DNA from: Bacteroidales bacterium | Lineage (GTDB): Bacteria; Bacteroidota; Bacteroidia; Bacteroidales; NBLH01 | Direction of reading: 5' to 3' | Length of the DNA stretch: 64,000 nucleotides | Assembly (NCBI GenBank): GCA_016937695.1 | Contig: JAFGWC010000047.1 | Coordinates: 11,529-75,528 of the forward strand | In this document: one piece after another, positions 37,614 through 45,265 of the stretch | How the letters are laid out: the number at the start of each line of letters is the position of its first letter | How positions within the stretch are numbered: position 1 is the first letter of the stretch | Notes under the pieces: model-generated | What the model saw: only the letters and a program-made list of their open reading frames with translations | The model's database searches: none | What the model was told of the DNA's origin: nothing | Program-made: the position numbers and the translations under genes

Positions 37614-39617
37614 ATGTATAATATTTTAAATAAAAGAAATAATTTAATAATTATTTTTCTTTTTTTTGTTTATAGTCTAAGTGCTCAAGACGGCTATTTT
37701 CAATTAAGAGGACGAATATTTCACAATAAAGAAAAATTAGGAAATGTATTTATAAAAGTATATGAAAATTCAAAACTTATAGATTCTACTTATACGACTG
37801 CACAAGGAGCATTTAGCTTTAAATTTAAATTAAACAGCAATTTTTTAGTTGAATTCAGTAAAAATCCATTTGTTACAAAAAAAATTATTGTAAATACAGA
37901 AGTTCCAGAATCAAAAAAATCAAAATTTTTTGATATATTCTTTGCCATGGTAATTGATGATAAAGAGAATGCCGATATGCGTTCGCTAGCAGGATTACCG
38001 GTTTCTAAATATTATTACGATGATATAATTGGAAGCTTTACAGCCAAAAAAATTAGTGCTGATGAAGTTAAAATCGAAAAAACAGATAGTTCAAAAATTA
38101 AAGAATTAGAAAACGAACTTAAAAGAAAAATTGCAGAAATTGATGCCGAAAAATTAAAATTATCTAATTCAAAAAAAACTAGTTATGATGCAGAACAAAT
38201 TATTAATAATGCAAAAAAAGAAGCTGATAGTATTATAAAAGAAGCAAATAAAAAATCAATTGCAATTATACAAAAAGCACAAAAAGATACTGTAAAAATA
38301 AGTCAATCATTAAATATAATAAATAAAGAAATTTCAACTGATGATTTTAAAAAATTATCAGTTAACGAAGAAGAATTTAGAAATAAAGAAAAAGTTAAAA
38401 CAGTAGAAGAAAAAATTAAGACATTAAATAAAATTGCCAATAAATCAGAATCAGAAAAACTTGATATAAAAAAGAACAGACTGGAAATTAGAAAAGAGCT
38501 AATGGATGTTGCCAGATATGAACTGGAAATTGACAGACTAAATGCAAAAACCAAAGAAGACAGTGCTAGAATAGAACAAAGAGAATCTCAGCTAAGCTTT
38601 ATGGAACTTGAAATGAAAACTGCTGAGCAAGAAATTGAAAATGCAAGAAAAGAAATAAAACTTAAAGACTTGGTAATTAAGAACAAAAACATAATGTTAA
38701 TTTCATTTCTTATCGGTTCTATTCTTTTAGTTGTTCTGATATTGGTTATTTATATAAACTATAGAGATAAAAAGAAAATAAATAAAATACTTGAAGATCA
38801 GAATATTGAATTAGAAAAACAATACAATAAAATTAAATCGCAAAACCATCAGATAATGGCAAGTATTAACTACGGAAAACGTATTCAAGATGCAATACTT
38901 CCTTCTGATAAGTTACTAAGTCATTTTTTTAATAACTCATTTGTTTATTTTAAACCAAGAAACATAGTAAGTGGAGATTTTTATTGGTTCTCGGTTCATC
39001 AAGATAATTTATTTTTAGCGGCTGTTGATTGTACAGGTCATGGAGTTCCAGGAGCGTTTATGTCATTGATTGGCAATTCATTACTAAATCATATCGTAAA
39101 TGAAAGAGGAATTTACAAACCTTCAGACATATTAAAAGAGCTCAATATTGGAGTGAATAAAGCATTAAGTCAAAGCAAATCTGGCGATGATGACCATGAA
39201 GACGGAATGGATATAACACTGTGTAAATTTGATAAAAAGAACAATAATATTGAATTATCTTGTGCCAATCATGTTGCATATATTGTAAAAGGCGAAGAAA
39301 TTACTGAAATTGAAGGCGATGAAATTTCGATAGGTGAAATATATTCGCAAAAAGATGATGTTGAATTCACAAACCATATATTACCAATTGATAAAGACTC
39401 TACACTTTATATGTTTTCAGATGGATTTCAAGATCAATTAGGCGGTGAAAATGGAAAGAAATTCATGACCAAAAAGTTAAAACAGTTATTTATTGATAAT
39501 CAGAACATTAAACCCGAAAATCAAATAAATAATATCAATTCAGCATTTGAAAATTGGAAAGCTGATAATAAACAAACAGATGATGTTTTAATAATGGCTG
39601 TAAAATTAGATTTTTAA
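37614..39617 (+). CDS. Membrane PP2C (SpoIIE-family) phosphatase with a periplasmic CRD-like domain and a long K/E-rich coiled coil
   Basis: The signal peptide ends SA|QD, and there is a TM segment MLISFLIGSILLVVLILVIYI. PP2C motifs SGDFYWF, DCTGHGVPGAF, DGMD and SDGF.DQ.GG are present. Confidence 0.8.
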   Translation: MYNILNKRNNLIIIFLFFVYSLSAQDGYFQLRGRIFHNKEKLGNVFIKVYENSKLIDSTYTTAQGAFSFKFKLNSNFLVEFSKNPFVTKKIIVNTEVPESKKSKFFDIFFAMVIDDKENADMRSLAGLPVSKYYYDDIIGSFTAKKISADEVKIEKTDSSKIKELENELKRKIAEIDAEKLKLSNSKKTSYDAEQIINNAKKEADSIIKEANKKSIAIIQKAQKDTVKISQSLNIINKEISTDDFKKLSVNEEEFRNKEKVKTVEEKIKTLNKIANKSESEKLDIKKNRLEIRKELMDVARYELEIDRLNAKTKEDSARIEQRESQLSFMELEMKTAEQEIENARKEIKLKDLVIKNKNIMLISFLIGSILLVVLILVIYINYRDKKKINKILEDQNIELEKQYNKIKSQNHQIMASINYGKRIQDAILPSDKLLSHFFNNSFVYFKPRNIVSGDFYWFSVHQDNLFLAAVDCTGHGVPGAFMSLIGNSLLNHIVNERGIYKPSDILKELNIGVNKALSQSKSGDDDHEDGMDITLCKFDKKNNNIELSCANHVAYIVKGEEITEIEGDEISIGEIYSQKDDVEFTNHILPIDKDSTLYMFSDGFQDQLGGENGKKFMTKKLKQLFIDNQNIKPENQINNINSAFENWKADNKQTDDVLIMAVKLDF

Positions 39618-40349
39618 AATTTCGTCTAAAAGTTTCGGCAATACTTCACCTGCTTTTCCTTCAATAAACATATCAGTTATCGAATTAGTATAACTTGAGT
39701 TTTCCACATTAATTTCAATAATTTTAGCACCATTTTCTTTAGCTCTGTGCGGAATAAGAGATGCAGGCATTATTTCGCCGGTAGTACCAACAACTAAAAA
39801 AACATCAGCATTATAAGCAGCTTCAAACGATAATCTATTAGCAGGTTCAGGAATTCCTTCGCCAAAAAAAATAAAATTGGGTTTTAAAACAGAATTGCAC
39901 TTCTTACAAAAAGGCGGAAGTGTATTTAAATCAACATCTTTAGATAAATACTTTTCAGCACATTTTTCACAAACCATTGTTTGAGAAGTTCCATGATATT
40001 CAAACACCGTTTTACTTCCTGCTTCCTGATGCAAATTATCAATATTCTGAGTAATTACAGATTTAATAATTCCTGATTTTTCCATTTCAGCTATTGCAAA
40101 ATGAGCAGAATTAGGCTTGGCTTTTCCAAAAAAATCATAAAATAATTCATTTATAACTTTCCATGCCTCAAGTGGTTTTGCATGAAAATAGTTGATATCC
40201 AATACTATAGGATTATATTTACTCCATAAACCTGTTTTTCCTCTAAAAGGCGGAATACCGCTTTCAACTGAAATTCCTGCACCTGTAAATGCTACAGCAT
40301 ATTTAGAGTTTTTTAAAAATTTAGCCGCTTCGTGTATATTATCCATCAT
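39606..40349 (-). CDS. NAD-dependent protein deacylase (Sir2/CobB family)
   Basis: It has GAGISVESGIPPFRG, TQNIDNLH and HG, plus a Zn ribbon (CEKC...CKKC), in ~247 aa. The 3' end overlaps the convergent PP2C gene by 12 nt. Confidence 0.85.
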   Translation of the reverse strand: MMDNIHEAAKFLKNSKYAVAFTGAGISVESGIPPFRGKTGLWSKYNPIVLDINYFHAKPLEAWKVINELFYDFFGKAKPNSAHFAIAEMEKSGIIKSVITQNIDNLHQEAGSKTVFEYHGTSQTMVCEKCAEKYLSKDVDLNTLPPFCKKCNSVLKPNFIFFGEGIPEPANRLSFEAAYNADVFLVVGTTGEIMPASLIPHRAKENGAKIIEINVENSSYTNSITDMFIEGKAGEVLPKLLDEILKI

Positions 40350-40585
40350 TATTTTCTTGATTTATAAAAATATTTCTAAGAATACTAAAATCTATATTTT
40401 ATAAGGAATTAATTTTAAAGCTAAATATACAAAAAAATAGCCATAAGGCACAATTCCTTATTTAAACCCCTAAAAACACTTAATTAAGTCTATTTTAATC
40501 TTTTATGTTTATTTAAAGATTAACTATATCTCAAAACTTTAACAATTTTTAAGAAGTATTCAATGAATTTAACATAAAACCAGTT

Positions 40586-40593
40586 TATCTTTG
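40586..40593 (+). promoter_or_regulatory. Candidate -7 promoter box TATCTTTG immediately upstream of the left motif/terminator module
   Basis: A perfect TAnnTTTG ending 5 nt before the conserved GGTTTAGG. Confidence 0.35.
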
Positions 40594-40598
40594 CTGCA

Positions 40599-40660
40599 GG
40601 TTTAGGTTAGTAATTAAGTAAAGAATTCGAGCAACTTCAAAAAGGTTGCTCTTTCTTTTT
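40599..40660 (+). ncRNA. Left 'GGTTTAGGTTAnTAATT + intrinsic terminator' module (candidate ~60-nt small RNA, or a terminator-linked repeat)
   Basis: The motif is at 40599-40615 and the hairpin GAGCAAC(9 nt)GTTGCTC at 40629-40651, followed by TTTCTTTTT. No plus-strand gene lies upstream for it to terminate. Confidence 0.35.
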
Positions 40661-40727
40661 GGGTAAAATCAAAATTAATTACATTTTTTGCAAAACATTT
40701 AAATTTTAAATAATACAAATAAAACTT

Positions 40728-41138
40728 CTACAGAGACTTAAATATTCTTGCTAAAGAAAATCCTGGTGCTTTCATATCTAAATCAAGAAAATAACCAAAA
40801 GGAGTTTGAGCTGTTTGATAATCAGCATTTTGCAATCTTGATTCAGCCATATTAAAAAGCTCTTTTGTAAATTCAGGATTTGCTTTACTTTCTGATAAAT
40901 GTGCAAATGAGTGAAGTACAACAAATTTAGTATTATTTTTACTGGCTGCCCATTTTAAATTCTTAACCAATTTTTTTTCAATTCCAACAATATCTTCTTC
41001 GTCTTTTTCTTCAGCTTGTATAAACGCTACAATACAATTCTCAAAATCATCACCTTCAGTAACATTTTCGGCAGCTTCTAGATTTTTTAATGTTAGTTTA
41101 TAAGAAAATTTTTCTGAAAAAATCATTAACAACTTCAT
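40728..41138 (-). CDS. Free-standing homologue of the archaeal threonyl-tRNA synthetase N-terminal editing domain (tRNA-Thr_ED / DTD-like fold)
   Basis: The 136-aa protein aligns along its length with the archaeal ThrRS editing domain as I recall it: MK.L.I.S..F, C.V.FI.AE..DE, VV....FAHLS......PE, and PFG.F......K..G.SL.R. Confidence 0.65.
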   Translation of the reverse strand: MKLLMIFSEKFSYKLTLKNLEAAENVTEGDDFENCIVAFIQAEEKDEEDIVGIEKKLVKNLKWAASKNNTKFVVLHSFAHLSESKANPEFTKELFNMAESRLQNADYQTAQTPFGYFLDLDMKAPGFSLARIFKSL

Positions 41139-41185
41139 AAATTAAAATTTAAATTGATATTTTTAATATTTTCAATTATTGATAT

Positions 41186-41230
41186 AAAAAAAGGGCGGGT
41201 AACCAATCCGCCCAATTATTAACCTAAACC
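41186..41230 (-). ncRNA. Right 'GGTTTAGGTTAATAATT + intrinsic terminator' module, in the 5' region of the ThrRS-editing-domain homologue
   Basis: On the minus strand, the motif (41230-41214) abuts the hairpin GGGCGG(9 nt)CCGCCC (41213-41193), followed by T7 (41192-41186). It lies 48 nt upstream of the ATG at 41138. Confidence 0.35.
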
Positions 41231-41278
41231 CTATTATGAAAAAATCTTATTTAATAAAATAAAATTTTCAACTTTAAA

Positions 41279-41286
41279 CAAATTTA
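41279..41286 (-). promoter_or_regulatory. Candidate -7 promoter box TAAATTTG (minus strand) upstream of the right module
   Basis: A perfect TAnnTTTG on the minus strand. A start ~7 nt downstream would give an ~85-nt transcript up to the terminator at 41186. Confidence 0.3.
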
Positions 41287-41425
41287 ATGCATCCTAAACT
41301 TATGTCAAATTATATTCTATTAAAAAATGTTAAATGATAATGTATTTTTTGAAATTTTCATTTTTAAATAATTTTCATTCTTAAATAAAATATTTAACTT
41401 TGAGATAAATCAATAAAATATAAAA

Positions 41426-42268
41426 ATGAAGTGGACAAATTATCACAGTCATACAAGTTTTAGTGATGGAAAAGGTGAAGCAGAACTATATGCAATATCT
41501 GCAATAGAACATAAAATGTACGCTTATGGATATTCTTGTCATTCGCCGGTTCCATTTTACAGCGGTTGGAACATGAAATTTGAAAATCTGCTTGCATATA
41601 TTAATGAGATAAAGAGATTAAAAATTAAATATCAGGATAAAATAAAAATATTTCTTGGAATGGAAATAGACTATATCAAAAACATTATTGGTATAAATAA
41701 TTTCAAACATTTAAACTTAGATTATACTATCGGCGGCGTTCATTTTTTAGGTTTTTTTGATGATGGAAGTGCTTGGGATTATGATGGAGGAAAAATCAAA
41801 TATGAAAAAGGCCTAAAAGAACTTTTCAATAACGATATTAAATCACTTGTTAAATATTATTACGAACAAGTTAATAATATGATTATTGATGAAAAACCAG
41901 ATATTGTTGCACATTTAGATTTGATAAAAAAATATAACAAAGGCAATTTTTTTTTCGATGAAAATGAAAAATGGTACAAAGATTTAGTTTTTGAAACTCT
42001 GAATATAATCTCAAAAAGCGATTCTATTTTAGAAGTTAATACAAGAGGCGTTTTAAAAGGATTAAATGAAGAGTTTTACCCTTCAAATTTTGTTTTAGAC
42101 AAGTGCAAAGAACTAAATATAAAAATGTGCATTAATGCAGATACACACAATCCAACAGATGTAATGGCTTTGTTGCCGGAAGTAAGAAATTTATTGATTG
42201 ACAAAGGATTTAAAGAGTTTTATATTTTTGATGAAAAAGGCTGGGAACCGATAGGAATTGAGAATTAA
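41426..42268 (+). CDS. PHP-domain histidinol-phosphatase-family (HisJ-like) phosphoesterase
   Basis: It has the N-terminal YHSHTSFSDGKG, later GGVHF, AHLD and NADTHNP metal-ligand motifs, in ~280 aa. Confidence 0.75.
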   Translation: MKWTNYHSHTSFSDGKGEAELYAISAIEHKMYAYGYSCHSPVPFYSGWNMKFENLLAYINEIKRLKIKYQDKIKIFLGMEIDYIKNIIGINNFKHLNLDYTIGGVHFLGFFDDGSAWDYDGGKIKYEKGLKELFNNDIKSLVKYYYEQVNNMIIDEKPDIVAHLDLIKKYNKGNFFFDENEKWYKDLVFETLNIISKSDSILEVNTRGVLKGLNEEFYPSNFVLDKCKELNIKMCINADTHNPTDVMALLPEVRNLLIDKGFKEFYIFDEKGWEPIGIEN

Positions 42269-42330
42269 AAATTAGGAATTAAAAACTTGGAACTTAAAAC
42301 CAGAAGCTACATATTAAAAAATATAAAAAA

Positions 42331-43368
42331 GTGCAGATAGATTTTCATTACAATACAATAAGAGTTTTGATGGAAAAAGTTGGTTTTTCATCTGAAGATT
42401 CTCAGATAATAGCATATTCTTGTCAATTTGTAGATGATGCTGTTGATCATGAAGAGATGAATGTAAATGGAAGATTAGATATTTTGCATAAACGATTTTC
42501 AAATAAAACATTCAATCCTGTTTGCACAGCTCATAAAGGACTGCAATTTTTAAAAGGATTTAAAAAAGATGTTCAAGATAGAATATATATTCCCTTTCAT
42601 TTTTTAGCAGATTTAGATGAATTAAAAAGTGAAAATGATTCATTTATTGTAAACCCAAATGGTAATTTAGCTAAAAATTTGGTTCTTTTAGCTAAAACGG
42701 AATTAAGTAAAACCACAGGCGAAGAAAGAATAATGAATTTAGTAAGATTGGGAATTGCAATACATACATATTCAGACACTTGGGCTCACCAAGGATTTTC
42801 GGGTCGCCACAATTCAGTTGAAAACGATATTGAGGATATTGAATTATATCAAGAAGGAAAATGGGAAAAGATTTCGTTTATTAACAATCTGGAATACAAC
42901 TCATTGCCAGATATTGGTCATGCCGAAGCCGCAAGTTATCCGGATCAATCGCATCTTAAATGGAGATATCGAAAACTTAGTACAAACACTATTATAGAAA
43001 GAGATAATTCCAAAATTTTTCTTGAAGCTGCTGAAAATATTTTTAACATATTTATAGGTATAAATAAAAAATCAGAATGGGAATCTTTAAAAACAAAACT
43101 GAATGAATGTTTCTTATTTTACAGCGATTCACTTGACGAGAAATTCAATAAATTTCAAAAAGTTTTTCCTGAAATTGGATTTTATTACGATTCAAAACAA
43201 TGGCATAACGAAGCATTAAGTGTTGTAAAACCCAATAATATTGTGAAAAAAATTAAAGAAGATAAGCCAAATTATATTTTGGGAAGCGATAAAAAATGGT
43301 TTTATTTTCATCTTGCAGCTCTAGAGCAAAGAGAATTTATAATTAAATTTCTTCAATTTCAGAAATAA
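42331..43368 (+). CDS. Conserved hypothetical protein with a His-rich motif (IAIHTYSDTWAHQGFSG) reminiscent of zinc phospholipase-C-like folds; GTG start predicted
   Basis: There is no signal peptide. The ORF opens with GTG at 42331, and an alternative ATG lies at 42370. H/D-rich motifs FHYN, DDAVDH, HTYSDTWAH and DIGHAEA are present. Confidence 0.4.
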   Translation: MQIDFHYNTIRVLMEKVGFSSEDSQIIAYSCQFVDDAVDHEEMNVNGRLDILHKRFSNKTFNPVCTAHKGLQFLKGFKKDVQDRIYIPFHFLADLDELKSENDSFIVNPNGNLAKNLVLLAKTELSKTTGEERIMNLVRLGIAIHTYSDTWAHQGFSGRHNSVENDIEDIELYQEGKWEKISFINNLEYNSLPDIGHAEAASYPDQSHLKWRYRKLSTNTIIERDNSKIFLEAAENIFNIFIGINKKSEWESLKTKLNECFLFYSDSLDEKFNKFQKVFPEIGFYYDSKQWHNEALSVVKPNNIVKKIKEDKPNYILGSDKKWFYFHLAALEQREFIIKFLQFQK

Positions 43369-43417: not shown

Positions 43418-45265
43418 TTATATTCTAAGTCCAAAAACCACAATATCATCAATTTGATCATGATCTGTTCCCATCCAATCTATAATAGTTTGATTAAGAA
43501 TTTCTCTTTGTTCTTTCATTGGTTTTTTATAATTTTCAATTAATAATTCTTTAAATTTCTTTGTTTTAAATTTTTGCCCAAGTTCGCCACCAAACTGGTC
43601 TATATAACCATCTGAAAAAGTATAAAGACAATCATTTTTTTGTAATTGAAATTTATGATTAGTAAAATCTTTTTCTACAATATAAACAGAAATTGGCTGC
43701 CTGTCAGCTTTTAAATGAATGAGCTCCTCAGCACCTTCCCGTAAAATATAAAGTGGATTATACGCTCCGGAAAATTGCAACTCAAGTGTCTCAGAATTAA
43801 TAATATACAAGGCTATATCCATTCCGTCTTTTGTTTCATCTTCTCTTCCCCTTTGACCTAAGGATTTTTTCACTTTATTTCTTAATCTGTTTAATAATTC
43901 TCCTGCATTATCAAGACTTCTCGGACTAACTATTTCATTCAAAAAAGAAGTCCCAAGCATACTCATAAAAGCTCCGGGAACGCCATGTCCAGTACAATCA
44001 GCAACAGCAACAATAATAAAGTTTTTAATTTCGCTAACCCAATAAAAATCACCACTTACAATATCTCTGGGTTTTAATAATATAAAATATTCTTTTAATA
44101 TCTGATTTATATACTCATCCGAAGGGAAAATTGCTTTTTGAATTCTTTTTGCATAATTAATACTATCAACAATATCTTCTTTTTGTTTTAATGCTATATC
44201 TCTTTGAATTTCAATTTCTTCTTTCTGAGTTTCAATTTCTTCATTTTGTTCTTGTATTTCTGCATTTCTTTCCAATAATTGCTCCGATTGAGCTGAAATT
44301 TCTTCGCTTTTTTCTATAATTTCTGCGTTTTGTAATGCTAAAAGTTTATTTGCTTTTCGCTTTGCTCTATAAAGGCTAAATATTATGATTAAAAATATTA
44401 ATATTACTGTAAAAAAAACCGTAAATGCCATTAACCATTGACGTTGCAACTTAACTTGTTCTTTTTGCTTTTGAATTTTTTCTTCTTTAATTTTTTTATC
44501 AATATACAATTGTCCAATTTCTTCACTTTTTTTAATAGTATCTTGTACTAAATCACTTTTCTCATTTTTTACAACAGTTAATGTGCTATCTACAATATTT
44601 AACTGCATTTTTTTTTCTTCACTCTCCTTTACTGCAGATTCATACTTTGTTTCTAGTATATTAATTTTTTGTTTTTCATATGTAATTTTAGTAGATCCTT
44701 TATAACTATTAAACTCTTGTAAATATTCAAATGCAGCTTTATAATTATTTTGACTTGCATATATTTTAACAACTGATTCATATAATTTACAAACAAGACT
44801 TGGATATTTAACGGCTCTTGCTTCCTTAAGTATTTCTTCATAAATAGAAAGAGCTTTTTTAGTTTTACCGTTAGCTTCATATGCTGAACCAATATTATAA
44901 TAAGTTTTTAATTTAGAAATATTATGACCAAGCAATTTTCTTAACTCTAATTCTTTTTCGTAATATTTTATTGCAGATTTATAATTTTCTTGTTTAAAAT
45001 ATGCAGTTCCAATCATGTTTAACGAATTAGCTTGCATATTCTTATCATTCATTTTTTTGGCAAGTTCATAAGCTTTATTGCCATACTTAAGGCTTTTTTC
45101 TGTTGATATTGGTAAATATTCTTTCGATAGTTTATACAGAATCTCATTTTTCTCTATTTCTTCTGCTGTTTGCAATTTTTTTTCAAGAATTTCTATACTT
45201 TGCTGTGCATTTGAAAATAAATAAAAAAATATTATTGATAAAAAAAGAAGTGAAATTTTTCGCAT
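43418..45265 (-). CDS. Membrane PP2C (SpoIIE-family) phosphatase with a periplasmic TPR sensor region and coiled coil
   Basis: The signal peptide ends NA|QQ. It has TPR-like repeats (A...Y.KA...), a TM segment LMAFTVFFTVILIFLIIIFSL, and PP2C motifs SGDFYWV, DCTGHGVPGAF, DGMD and SDGY.DQFGG. Confidence 0.8.
   Translation of the reverse strand: MRKISLLFLSIIFFYLFSNAQQSIEILEKKLQTAEEIEKNEILYKLSKEYLPISTEKSLKYGNKAYELAKKMNDKNMQANSLNMIGTAYFKQENYKSAIKYYEKELELRKLLGHNISKLKTYYNIGSAYEANGKTKKALSIYEEILKEARAVKYPSLVCKLYESVVKIYASQNNYKAAFEYLQEFNSYKGSTKITYEKQKINILETKYESAVKESEEKKMQLNIVDSTLTVVKNEKSDLVQDTIKKSEEIGQLYIDKKIKEEKIQKQKEQVKLQRQWLMAFTVFFTVILIFLIIIFSLYRAKRKANKLLALQNAEIIEKSEEISAQSEQLLERNAEIQEQNEEIETQKEEIEIQRDIALKQKEDIVDSINYAKRIQKAIFPSDEYINQILKEYFILLKPRDIVSGDFYWVSEIKNFIIVAVADCTGHGVPGAFMSMLGTSFLNEIVSPRSLDNAGELLNRLRNKVKKSLGQRGREDETKDGMDIALYIINSETLELQFSGAYNPLYILREGAEELIHLKADRQPISVYIVEKDFTNHKFQLQKNDCLYTFSDGYIDQFGGELGQKFKTKKFKELLIENYKKPMKEQREILNQTIIDWMGTDHDQIDDIVVFGLRI

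Follow-up and report, generated by a model that had tools for sequence, protein, structure and literature searches.

A stand-alone bacterial homologue of the archaeal threonyl-tRNA synthetase editing domain, with a family-wide pocket signature and a recurrent sirtuin neighbour

The DTD-like fold serves in the proofreading of translation, where a large share of the catalysis falls to the RNA substrate, and three jobs have been characterised for it: those performed by D-aminoacyl-tRNA deacylase (DTD), by the N-terminal domain (NTD) of the threonyl-tRNA synthetase (ThrRS) of archaea, and by animal ATD. Here we describe a gene encoding a free-standing relative of the second of these in a bacterium. 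It lies in a 64,000-nucleotide stretch of a Bacteroidales genome (positions 11,529 to 75,528 of contig JAFGWC010000047.1, assembly GCA_016937695.1; contig C77 in our numbering). This whole stretch is called the window, and coordinates below refer to it.

In the ThrRS editing domain from Pyrococcus abyssi (PabNTD), seven residues lie within 6 Å of the scissile bond: Pro80, Phe81, Ala82, His83, Tyr120, Lys121 and, from the partner subunit, Glu134' (Ahmad et al. 2015, PMC4491819). The tRNA itself activates the attacking water, through the 2'-OH of A76, and the oxyanion hole is formed by the main-chain nitrogens of Phe81 and Ala82 (PMC4491819). Glu134 holds the alpha-amino group of the substrate across subunits and Tyr120 lines the seryl pocket; the E134A and Y120A variants nevertheless retain activity and specificity, both side chains being dispensable (PMC4491819). 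His83 and Lys121 are non-catalytic as well, Lys121 serving to position the water. In K121M the catalytic water is displaced and activity nearly abolished, the substrate still being bound tightly, and Met is the natural residue of DTD at this position (PMC4491819).

Stand-alone versions of the domain have also been described. Mukai et al. (2017, mBio 8:e00561-17, PMC5424206, Text S1, Fig. S4) catalogued 'tRNA-Thr-ED' proteins, defined as stand-alone editing-domain homologues without an anticodon-binding domain, and found them widely distributed among prokaryotes. The residues recognising the aminoacyl-adenosine are kept in them, except Glu135 (Mj) / Glu134 (Pab), the residue selecting the amino-acid moiety, and the function proposed was the hydrolysis of aminoacyl- or hydroxyacyl-tRNAs (PMC5424206). 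That paper contains no assay of these proteins and our full-text literature search found none elsewhere; neither the paper nor its supplements mention a sirtuin link. At NCBI such proteins are named 'threonyl-tRNA synthetase editing domain-containing protein'. The family and its lost Glu are therefore already published, and the present gene is one more member, from what we call below the HS-type branch. Like the proteins of Mukai et al., its product has a single domain and does not conserve the Glu (Arg here). Their focus, however, was on SepCysS-linked archaeal members, the most ThrRS-like ones, whereas this gene belongs to a bacterial branch and has no SepRS/SepCysS, tRNA-Cys or sulfur-gene context. 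Its position is as follows.

40728..41138, (-) strand: stand-alone tRNA-Thr-ED gene, HS-type bacterial branch, 136 amino acids, characterised by PF08915, PDB matches, AlphaFold2, Foldseek and dN/dS

The 136-residue open reading frame matches the Pfam family tRNA-Thr_ED (PF08915) with an E-value of 4.5e-37 and 127.6 bits (cut-off 30.2), residues 1-135 covering profile positions 1-136 of 137. The Pfam scan returned no other family, and neither DTD (PF02580) nor DTD2 (PF04414) gave a profile match at E <= 1. Among NCBIfam models, residues 1-132 align with the first 134 positions of those for archaeal ThrRS and for crenarchaeal Ser-tRNA(Thr) hydrolase, with scores that stay far short of the whole-protein cut-offs, as expected for a single domain. 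Among solved structures, its nearest relatives in sequence are the ThrRS editing domains from P. abyssi, M. jannaschii and A. pernix, aligned end to end (E 1e-12 to 1e-4). An AlphaFold2 model, for which 41 family members served as input, reached a pLDDT of 95.9. In Foldseek, the top match of the predicted structure was PabNTD itself (1y2q; E 6e-16, TM score 0.94, root-mean-square deviation 1.4 Å), and superposition of the model on 1y2q and its ligand complexes gave TM scores of 0.94-0.96 and deviations of 1.1-1.4 Å. DTD ranked far lower, the model resembling it with a TM score of about 0.63 and 12-14% identity. The original prediction, made from the letters alone, had proposed an end-to-end, free-standing homologue of the archaeal editing domain and had suggested profile searches against tRNA-Thr_ED and DTD2, together with structure prediction and superposition, as checks. 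Both bear it out, tRNA-Thr_ED being matched and DTD2 not.

The protein thus shares with the archaeal ThrRS editing domains (PDB 1Y2Q, 2HL1, 3PD2-5; 4RRF; 4RR6, A. pernix ThrRS-2) its Pfam family and fold, the F-A-H-L-S oxyanion-hole/His segment and the P-F-G loop, but it lacks a synthetase or anticodon-binding domain and has a new invariant Trp63 and Lys67. With DTD (PF02580) and animal ATD it has in common the DTD-like fold, the stand-alone form and an action, established or presumed, on the 3'-aminoacyl-adenosine of tRNA; in DTD, too, the place of the NTD's Lys121 is taken by a non-polar residue, Met (Leu here). It differs from DTD in that the structural similarity is distant, no Pfam match links the two, and a separate canonical DTD is encoded in the same genome.

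The gene is present in one copy in the genome and is encoded alone, as had been noted. A search among longer proteins found no stable fused form: there was no ThrRS or Sir2 fusion, just one methyltransferase fusion cluster and two singletons. The start codon corresponds to the nearly invariant Met1 of the family, and relatives carry orthologues of identical length. The dN/dS ratio (non-synonymous over synonymous substitution rates) is 0.04-0.19 against seven orthologues, with dS saturated; the gene evolves under purifying selection.

Residue equivalences were taken from the HMMER alignment to PabNTD. The N-terminal I-H-S-D is I-F-S-E in this protein, PFG-Y-Y-K (W-Y-K in most archaea) is PFG-Y-F-L, K-G-H-P is P-G-F-S, and the His of AHLS is retained (His80 here, His83 in PabNTD). 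The substitutions named in the first reading thus hold in the alignment. One that was absent from its list is Glu134 to Arg131. Residue by residue, Tyr120 is replaced by Phe117, Lys121 by Leu118, His130 by Phe127 and Tyr79-Pro80 by His76-Ser77, so that the series around the scissile bond reads Ser77, Phe78, Ala79, His80, Phe117, Leu118 and Arg131'. The affected positions had been called catalytic. They are indeed substituted; the label, however, was overstated, as PabNTD works through the 2'-OH and main-chain amides (PMC4491819).

Whether these changes are local was assessed on a set of 1.84 billion representatives at 50% identity, in which 454 clusters matched at E <= 0.001. Stand-alone proteins of about 136 residues ranked at the top, and ThrRS-fused forms appeared only from about E 1e-12. 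When 85 representatives were aligned and split by the two residues preceding F-A-H-L, 62 were of the HS type and 19 of the YP type. Every long, ThrRS-length protein is in the YP-type set, while the HS-type proteins are mostly of stand-alone length. The two types differ as follows (numbering of the present protein).

Position 63: variable in the YP type; Trp in 57/62 of the HS type
Position 67: variable in the YP type; Lys in 57/62 of the HS type
Position 76: Tyr in the YP type; His in 62/62 of the HS type
Position 77: Pro in the YP type; Ser in 62/62 of the HS type
Position 117: Tyr in 19/19 of the YP type; variable in the HS type
Position 118: Lys in 19/19 of the YP type; Leu, Cys or Asn in the HS type, with Lys in 0/62
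Position 127: His in 18/19 of the YP type; variable in the HS type
Position 131: Glu in 15/19 of the YP type; Lys or Arg in 57/62 of the HS type

Common to both types are E43, D46, an aromatic residue at 78, H80, L81, P113-F114-G115 and G126. Within the HS type, F78 and H80 are each retained in 61/62 and L81 in 62/62, and P113-F114-G115 is found in most. Ala is the commonest residue at position 79 (16/19 of the YP type and 36/62 of the HS type, where T, S or N occur otherwise); it is the main-chain amide that matters there. In a maximum-likelihood tree, the bacterial stand-alone clade and the ThrRS domains are split by a branch with 100% SH-aLRT support and a length of about 3.5 changes per site on either side of the outgroup root. 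Judged by these alignments, the pocket substitutions are a family signature and not a local oddity. The impression of an isolated peculiarity, which the first reading gave, was not borne out: the signature runs through a large bacterial family, with at least 586 species genomes, that Mukai et al. had catalogued (PMC5424206).

How should this signature be understood? Comparison with PabNTD shows that the scaffold for substrate-assisted catalysis is kept, and that every side chain shaping the aminoacyl pocket is changed. The pocket of the present protein has become hydrophobic (F117, L118, F127), and positions 131 and 134 carry conserved cations. On balance, we lean towards an ester hydrolase of acyl-tRNA whose acyl pocket has been rebuilt, distinct from a Ser-tRNA(Thr) editor; altered specificity had been proposed before and is a sensible reading, the active-site positions being substituted. 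The product would be a functional stand-alone hydrolase of DTD-like fold, probably homodimeric, in which the 2'-OH of A76 would activate the water, the main-chain amides of Phe78 and Ala79 would form the oxyanion hole, and the adjacent His80 is retained. The invariant His76-Ser77 pair may take part in the chemistry. In the rebuilt pocket, Arg131 takes the place of the cross-subunit Glu that clamps the alpha-ammonium group. Such a pocket, with its Glu clamp turned into Arg, argues against Ser-tRNA(Thr) as substrate, and an acyl-tRNA that has no free cationic alpha-amine, its acyl group being a hydroxyacyl, N-blocked or acidic one, would be more likely.

Several points weigh against this proposal. 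K121M cripples PabNTD, so Leu118 could mean low or no activity, yet DTD has Met there. Residues 117 and 118 differ between family members, which agrees poorly with a single, narrowly specified acyl side chain. The conserved neighbours include neither a tRNA gene nor an aminoacyl-tRNA synthetase nor any other gene of translation, leaving a tRNA substrate without contextual support; no tRNA gene at all was found in the window or in 30 related loci. Finally, our full-text literature search found no assay of any member of the HS-type branch.

Alternatively, the fold may have been kept and hydrolysis lost, leaving a non-catalytic binder of the tRNA 3' end (or of a nucleotide). Loss of the Lys121 and His130 equivalents would agree with this, as would the behaviour of archaeal K121M, which binds its substrate tightly and is nearly inactive. 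However, because PabNTD catalysis proceeds via the 2'-OH and main-chain amides, the loss of side chains does not by itself make the protein non-catalytic. Moreover, the H-S-F-A-H-L segment is strictly conserved (H76 and S77 in 62/62, H80 in 61/62), as expected for an active site, and an invariant new His-Ser beside the scissile-bond position suggests chemistry that was rebuilt and not lost. We therefore consider a pure binder unlikely.

A pattern scan with one genome per species found the gene in at least 586 species, and the protein clusters of comparable length number 4548. Record titles of the carriers include Bacteroidales (Prolixibacteraceae, Lentimicrobiaceae, Paludibacter), 'Chlorobiota', Cloacimonadota, Zixiibacteriota, Aminicenantes, Atribacteria and Desulfobacter/Deltaproteobacteria, and cultured Prolixibacter, Draconibacterium and Maribellus are among them. 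In the phylum of the window, the gene is rare and patchy (4 of 401 evenly sampled genomes); it is commoner close to the window's genome, with 12 carriers among 41 relatives. These carriers include 6 of the 11 further genomes in its genus. In two other sampled phyla, it was found in 12-13 of 121 genomes (the phylum of genome G439, titled Cloacimonetes or Cloacimonadota) and in 35 of 301 (the phylum of genome G440, titled Deltaproteobacteria). Near-identical clades of the protein tree mix phyla, which points to horizontal transfer of the gene.

The host genome (3.95 Mb, 27.8% G+C, 99.6% completeness), whose closest matches are metagenome-assembled genomes titled Bacteroidota or Bacteroidales, was inspected for the two classical jobs of the fold. 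Its ThrRS is of the bacterial type (648 amino acids, TGS and tRNA_SAD domains) and, as had been expected from the sequence of the window alone, has its own bacterial editing domain, in which both editing motifs are kept: H-S-S-A-H (H-x-x-x-H) and C-R-G-P-H (C-x-x-x-H). A canonical DTD is encoded elsewhere, on contig C78 (E 4.7e-57). With the ThrRS motifs intact and DTD present, neither classical job is vacant.

This bears on two further explanations. An ordinary trans-editor would clear Ser-tRNA(Thr) and back up the ThrRS editing site, for example when the editing cysteine is oxidised. That very activity belongs to a domain of which the protein is a homologue, and the active and specific E134A and Y120A variants of PabNTD indicate that some individual substitutions are tolerated. 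Nevertheless, the water-positioning Lys121 is Leu here and Lys occurs in none of the 62 HS-type representatives, the alpha-amine clamp has become a cation in 57/62, the cis-editing site of the host ThrRS is intact, and presence in 4/401 genomes of the phylum is odd for a general fidelity factor. We give this scenario little credit. A second chiral proofreader, deacylating D-aminoacyl-tRNA or Gly-tRNA, would be in keeping with the fold, common to DTD, and with the deacylation of Gly-tRNA(Gly) by archaeal NTDs. Yet the genome already has a canonical DTD, the protein has no Pfam DTD match, its sequence has no cross-subunit Gly-cisPro-type motif, and no racemase is found among the neighbours of the clade of this gene. 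This last hypothesis appears very improbable.

The remaining scenario concerns the next gene downstream.

39606..40349, (-) strand: Sir2-family NAD-dependent protein deacylase (CobB / Sir2-Af2-like), 247 amino acids, separated from the tRNA-Thr-ED gene by a 378-nt spacer

This sirtuin matches PF02146 and passes the NCBIfam model NF001753 (NAD-dependent protein deacylase) with 262.7 bits for a cut-off of 243; its best NCBIfam match, NF040867 (CobB), is below the cut-off of 320. Its best PDB match is A. fulgidus Sir2-Af2 (1ma3, E 1.2e-60). Gene neighbourhoods were compared for the best 80 of the at least 586 species matches, and loci sampled from the phyla of G439 and G440 were read as well. A sirtuin was found directly downstream on the same strand in the following places.

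Order of the window: 9 of 12 loci (one further locus had too little DNA)
Another class of the window's phylum: 1 of 3 loci (L013, L014, L015)
Sampled phylum of G439: 9 of 13 loci, with a gap of 0 nt in seven and of -1 and 5 nt in two
Sampled phylum of G440: 2 loci, L133 (same place as L096) and L136

What is new here is a recurrent downstream sirtuin in the clade of this gene, across three phyla; the association is not obligate and does not extend to the whole family. On the protein tree, the linkage changes at least three times across well-supported branches, which argues that it is old or recurrent. It is limited to a sub-clade of proteins at least about 55% identical to this one: members of the G440 phylum that are 36-47% identical have no sirtuin neighbour, and the Prolixibacteraceae loci have no such linkage, a DEAD-box helicase being found downstream instead. 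In other Bacteroidales, MgsA is encoded divergently from the gene. Helicase and MgsA were both rejected as partners, each being a case of lineage-specific synteny.

Could the protein act with the sirtuin, hydrolysing 2''/3''-O-acyl-ADP-ribose or another acyl-ribose or acyl-nucleotide ester linked to protein deacylation? An acyl ester on a ribose 2'/3'-OH involves the same chemistry as aminoacyl-tRNA deacylation, the same-strand sirtuin directly downstream recurs in three phyla, and the loss of the amine clamp, the hydrophobic pocket and the cations at 131 and 134 would be compatible with it; in addition, the Foldseek entries include a Plasmodium DTD crystallised with ADP bound. Against this stand the confinement of the linkage to the sub-clade, with its absence from Prolixibacteraceae and divergent members of the G440 phylum, and the orthologous sirtuins found in 8 relatives without the gene. 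In the sample of the G439 phylum, SIR2 is present in 105 of 121 genomes, compared with 12-13 for the gene. Furthermore, the acylated ribose of O-acyl-ADP-ribose has no base to offer the conserved adenosine pocket, and in the window the spacer contains a terminator-like module (see below). A partnership with the sirtuin is in our view improbable, and an obligate coupling of the two genes was rejected outright, given the orthologues in the 8 gene-less relatives and the near-universal SIR2 of the G439-phylum sample.

Macrodomain O-acetyl-ADP-ribose deacetylases are often functionally tied to sirtuins. The present protein would resemble those of the YmdB/MacroD type, as a small acyl-ribose esterase beside a sirtuin, only if the coupling were real, and their fold is unrelated. 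The host genome encodes a macrodomain protein, elsewhere, along with two Sir2-family genes, and about 10 of the 12 gene-carrying genomes of the G439-phylum sample have a macrodomain as well. This is not a complementary distribution, which weighs further against a sirtuin partner, and the idea that the gene replaces a missing macrodomain was rejected, since macrodomains co-occur with it. An anti-phage defence system with Sir2 was likewise rejected for want of support from PADLOC: its models gave no match for the tRNA-Thr-ED protein and marginal partial matches for the sirtuin (E 6e-6 to 7e-4 over about 35 residues). In one relative, at locus L009 (G019:C136:1506-1838), the sirtuin behind the tRNA-Thr-ED gene is broken, leaving a fragment of 107-118 residues with an in-frame TGA, and the tRNA-Thr-ED gene is intact and sits on a long branch.

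On either side of the gene lies a copy of one and the same module, both copies pointing inwards.

40538..40660, (+) strand: flank module copy 1, convergent with the gene; TTTAACA..TTAACATAA box, GGTTTAGGTTAGTAATT, GC hairpin at 40629-40651, T-run
41186..41334, (-) strand: flank module copy 2, in the direction of the gene and about 50 nt upstream of its ATG; TTTAACA..TTAACATAA box, GGTTTAGGTTAATAATT at 41230-41214
41213-41193 and 41192-41186, (-) strand: GC hairpin and T7 run, respectively, of copy 2

In each copy the TTTAACA...TTAACATAA box is followed by GGTTTAGGTTA(A/G)TAATT, next by a GC-rich hairpin whose sequence differs between the copies, and last by a T-run; BLASTN aligns the two copies with 16/17 identities. 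The 3.95-Mb genome contains the 11-mer GGTTTAGGTTA three times, once per module and once within a coding region. Two other species, L005/L019 (L005:1131-1494) and L002 (L002:1121-1264), have the same module in the interval that separates the gene from the sirtuin. An Rfam scan of 39500-42500 (E <= 10) gave matches at chance level, with no riboswitch, T-box or leader, and left the modules unmatched. Each module may be a small transcription unit, a candidate small RNA gene or cis-antisense unit. As copy 1 contains a terminator-like site within the 378-nt spacer, the gene and the sirtuin may not be co-transcribed in this window.

Other neighbours in the window are listed here.

37614-39617, (+) strand: large protein, paralogous to the product of 43418-45265
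41426-42268, (+) strand: full-length DUF6765 protein (E 4.5e-67), divergently upstream
42331-43368, (+) strand: HisJ-family PHP histidinol-phosphatase-like protein (TIGR01856, E 3e-42), divergently upstream
43418-45265, (-) strand: large protein, paralogous to the product of 37614-39617

By eye, the two large paralogues have a common C-terminal block and the same layout, with an N-terminal signal or tetratricopeptide repeat region, a long coiled coil, a membrane span and the common block. In relatives, this block is again encoded next to the sirtuin (neighbour cluster 7).

A second recurrent neighbour is an uncharacterised UbiE/CpaM-like S-adenosylmethionine-dependent methyltransferase, which was set aside as a partner, as were helicase and MgsA. 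It adjoins tRNA-Thr-ED genes in 19 loci (for instance L083:1538-2200 and L129:1805-2587); their records bear the titles Cloacimonadota, Zixiibacteriota or Deltaproteobacteria, or they come from the samples of the G439 and G440 phyla. It is upstream in the loci titled Cloacimonadota or Zixiibacteriota and downstream in those of the G440 phylum, and its copies are 42% identical across phyla (E 5e-69); no orthologue was found in the window's genome. A metagenomic cluster of 283 residues, P0272, is a fusion of this kind, methyltransferase with tRNA-Thr-ED. In two sampled genomes of the G440 phylum, long frames of 655, 1157 and 656 residues open with a tRNA-Thr_ED match, at the following positions.

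G596:C1:1979586-1979993 (locus L120): tRNA-Thr_ED match opening a long frame
G596:C1:1775727-1776143: tRNA-Thr_ED match opening a long frame
G635:C242:170-586 (locus L123): tRNA-Thr_ED match opening a long frame

The large fused body is possibly an archaeal-type ThrRS or another synthetase gained by a bacterium.

The gene itself adds no new principle beyond its family, but the recurrent sirtuin partner and the cultivable relatives make it a modest testable lead. If the doubtful sirtuin partnership were true after all, it would provide a route other than macrodomains for clearing O-acyl-ADP-ribose, and the first non-tRNA substrate for the fold. The family as a whole represents a fourth branch of the DTD-like fold, large and mostly bacterial, with an invariant rebuilt pocket and at least 586 species genomes, and identification of its substrate would add a quality-control or detoxification activity, or a non-tRNA one, to this fold.

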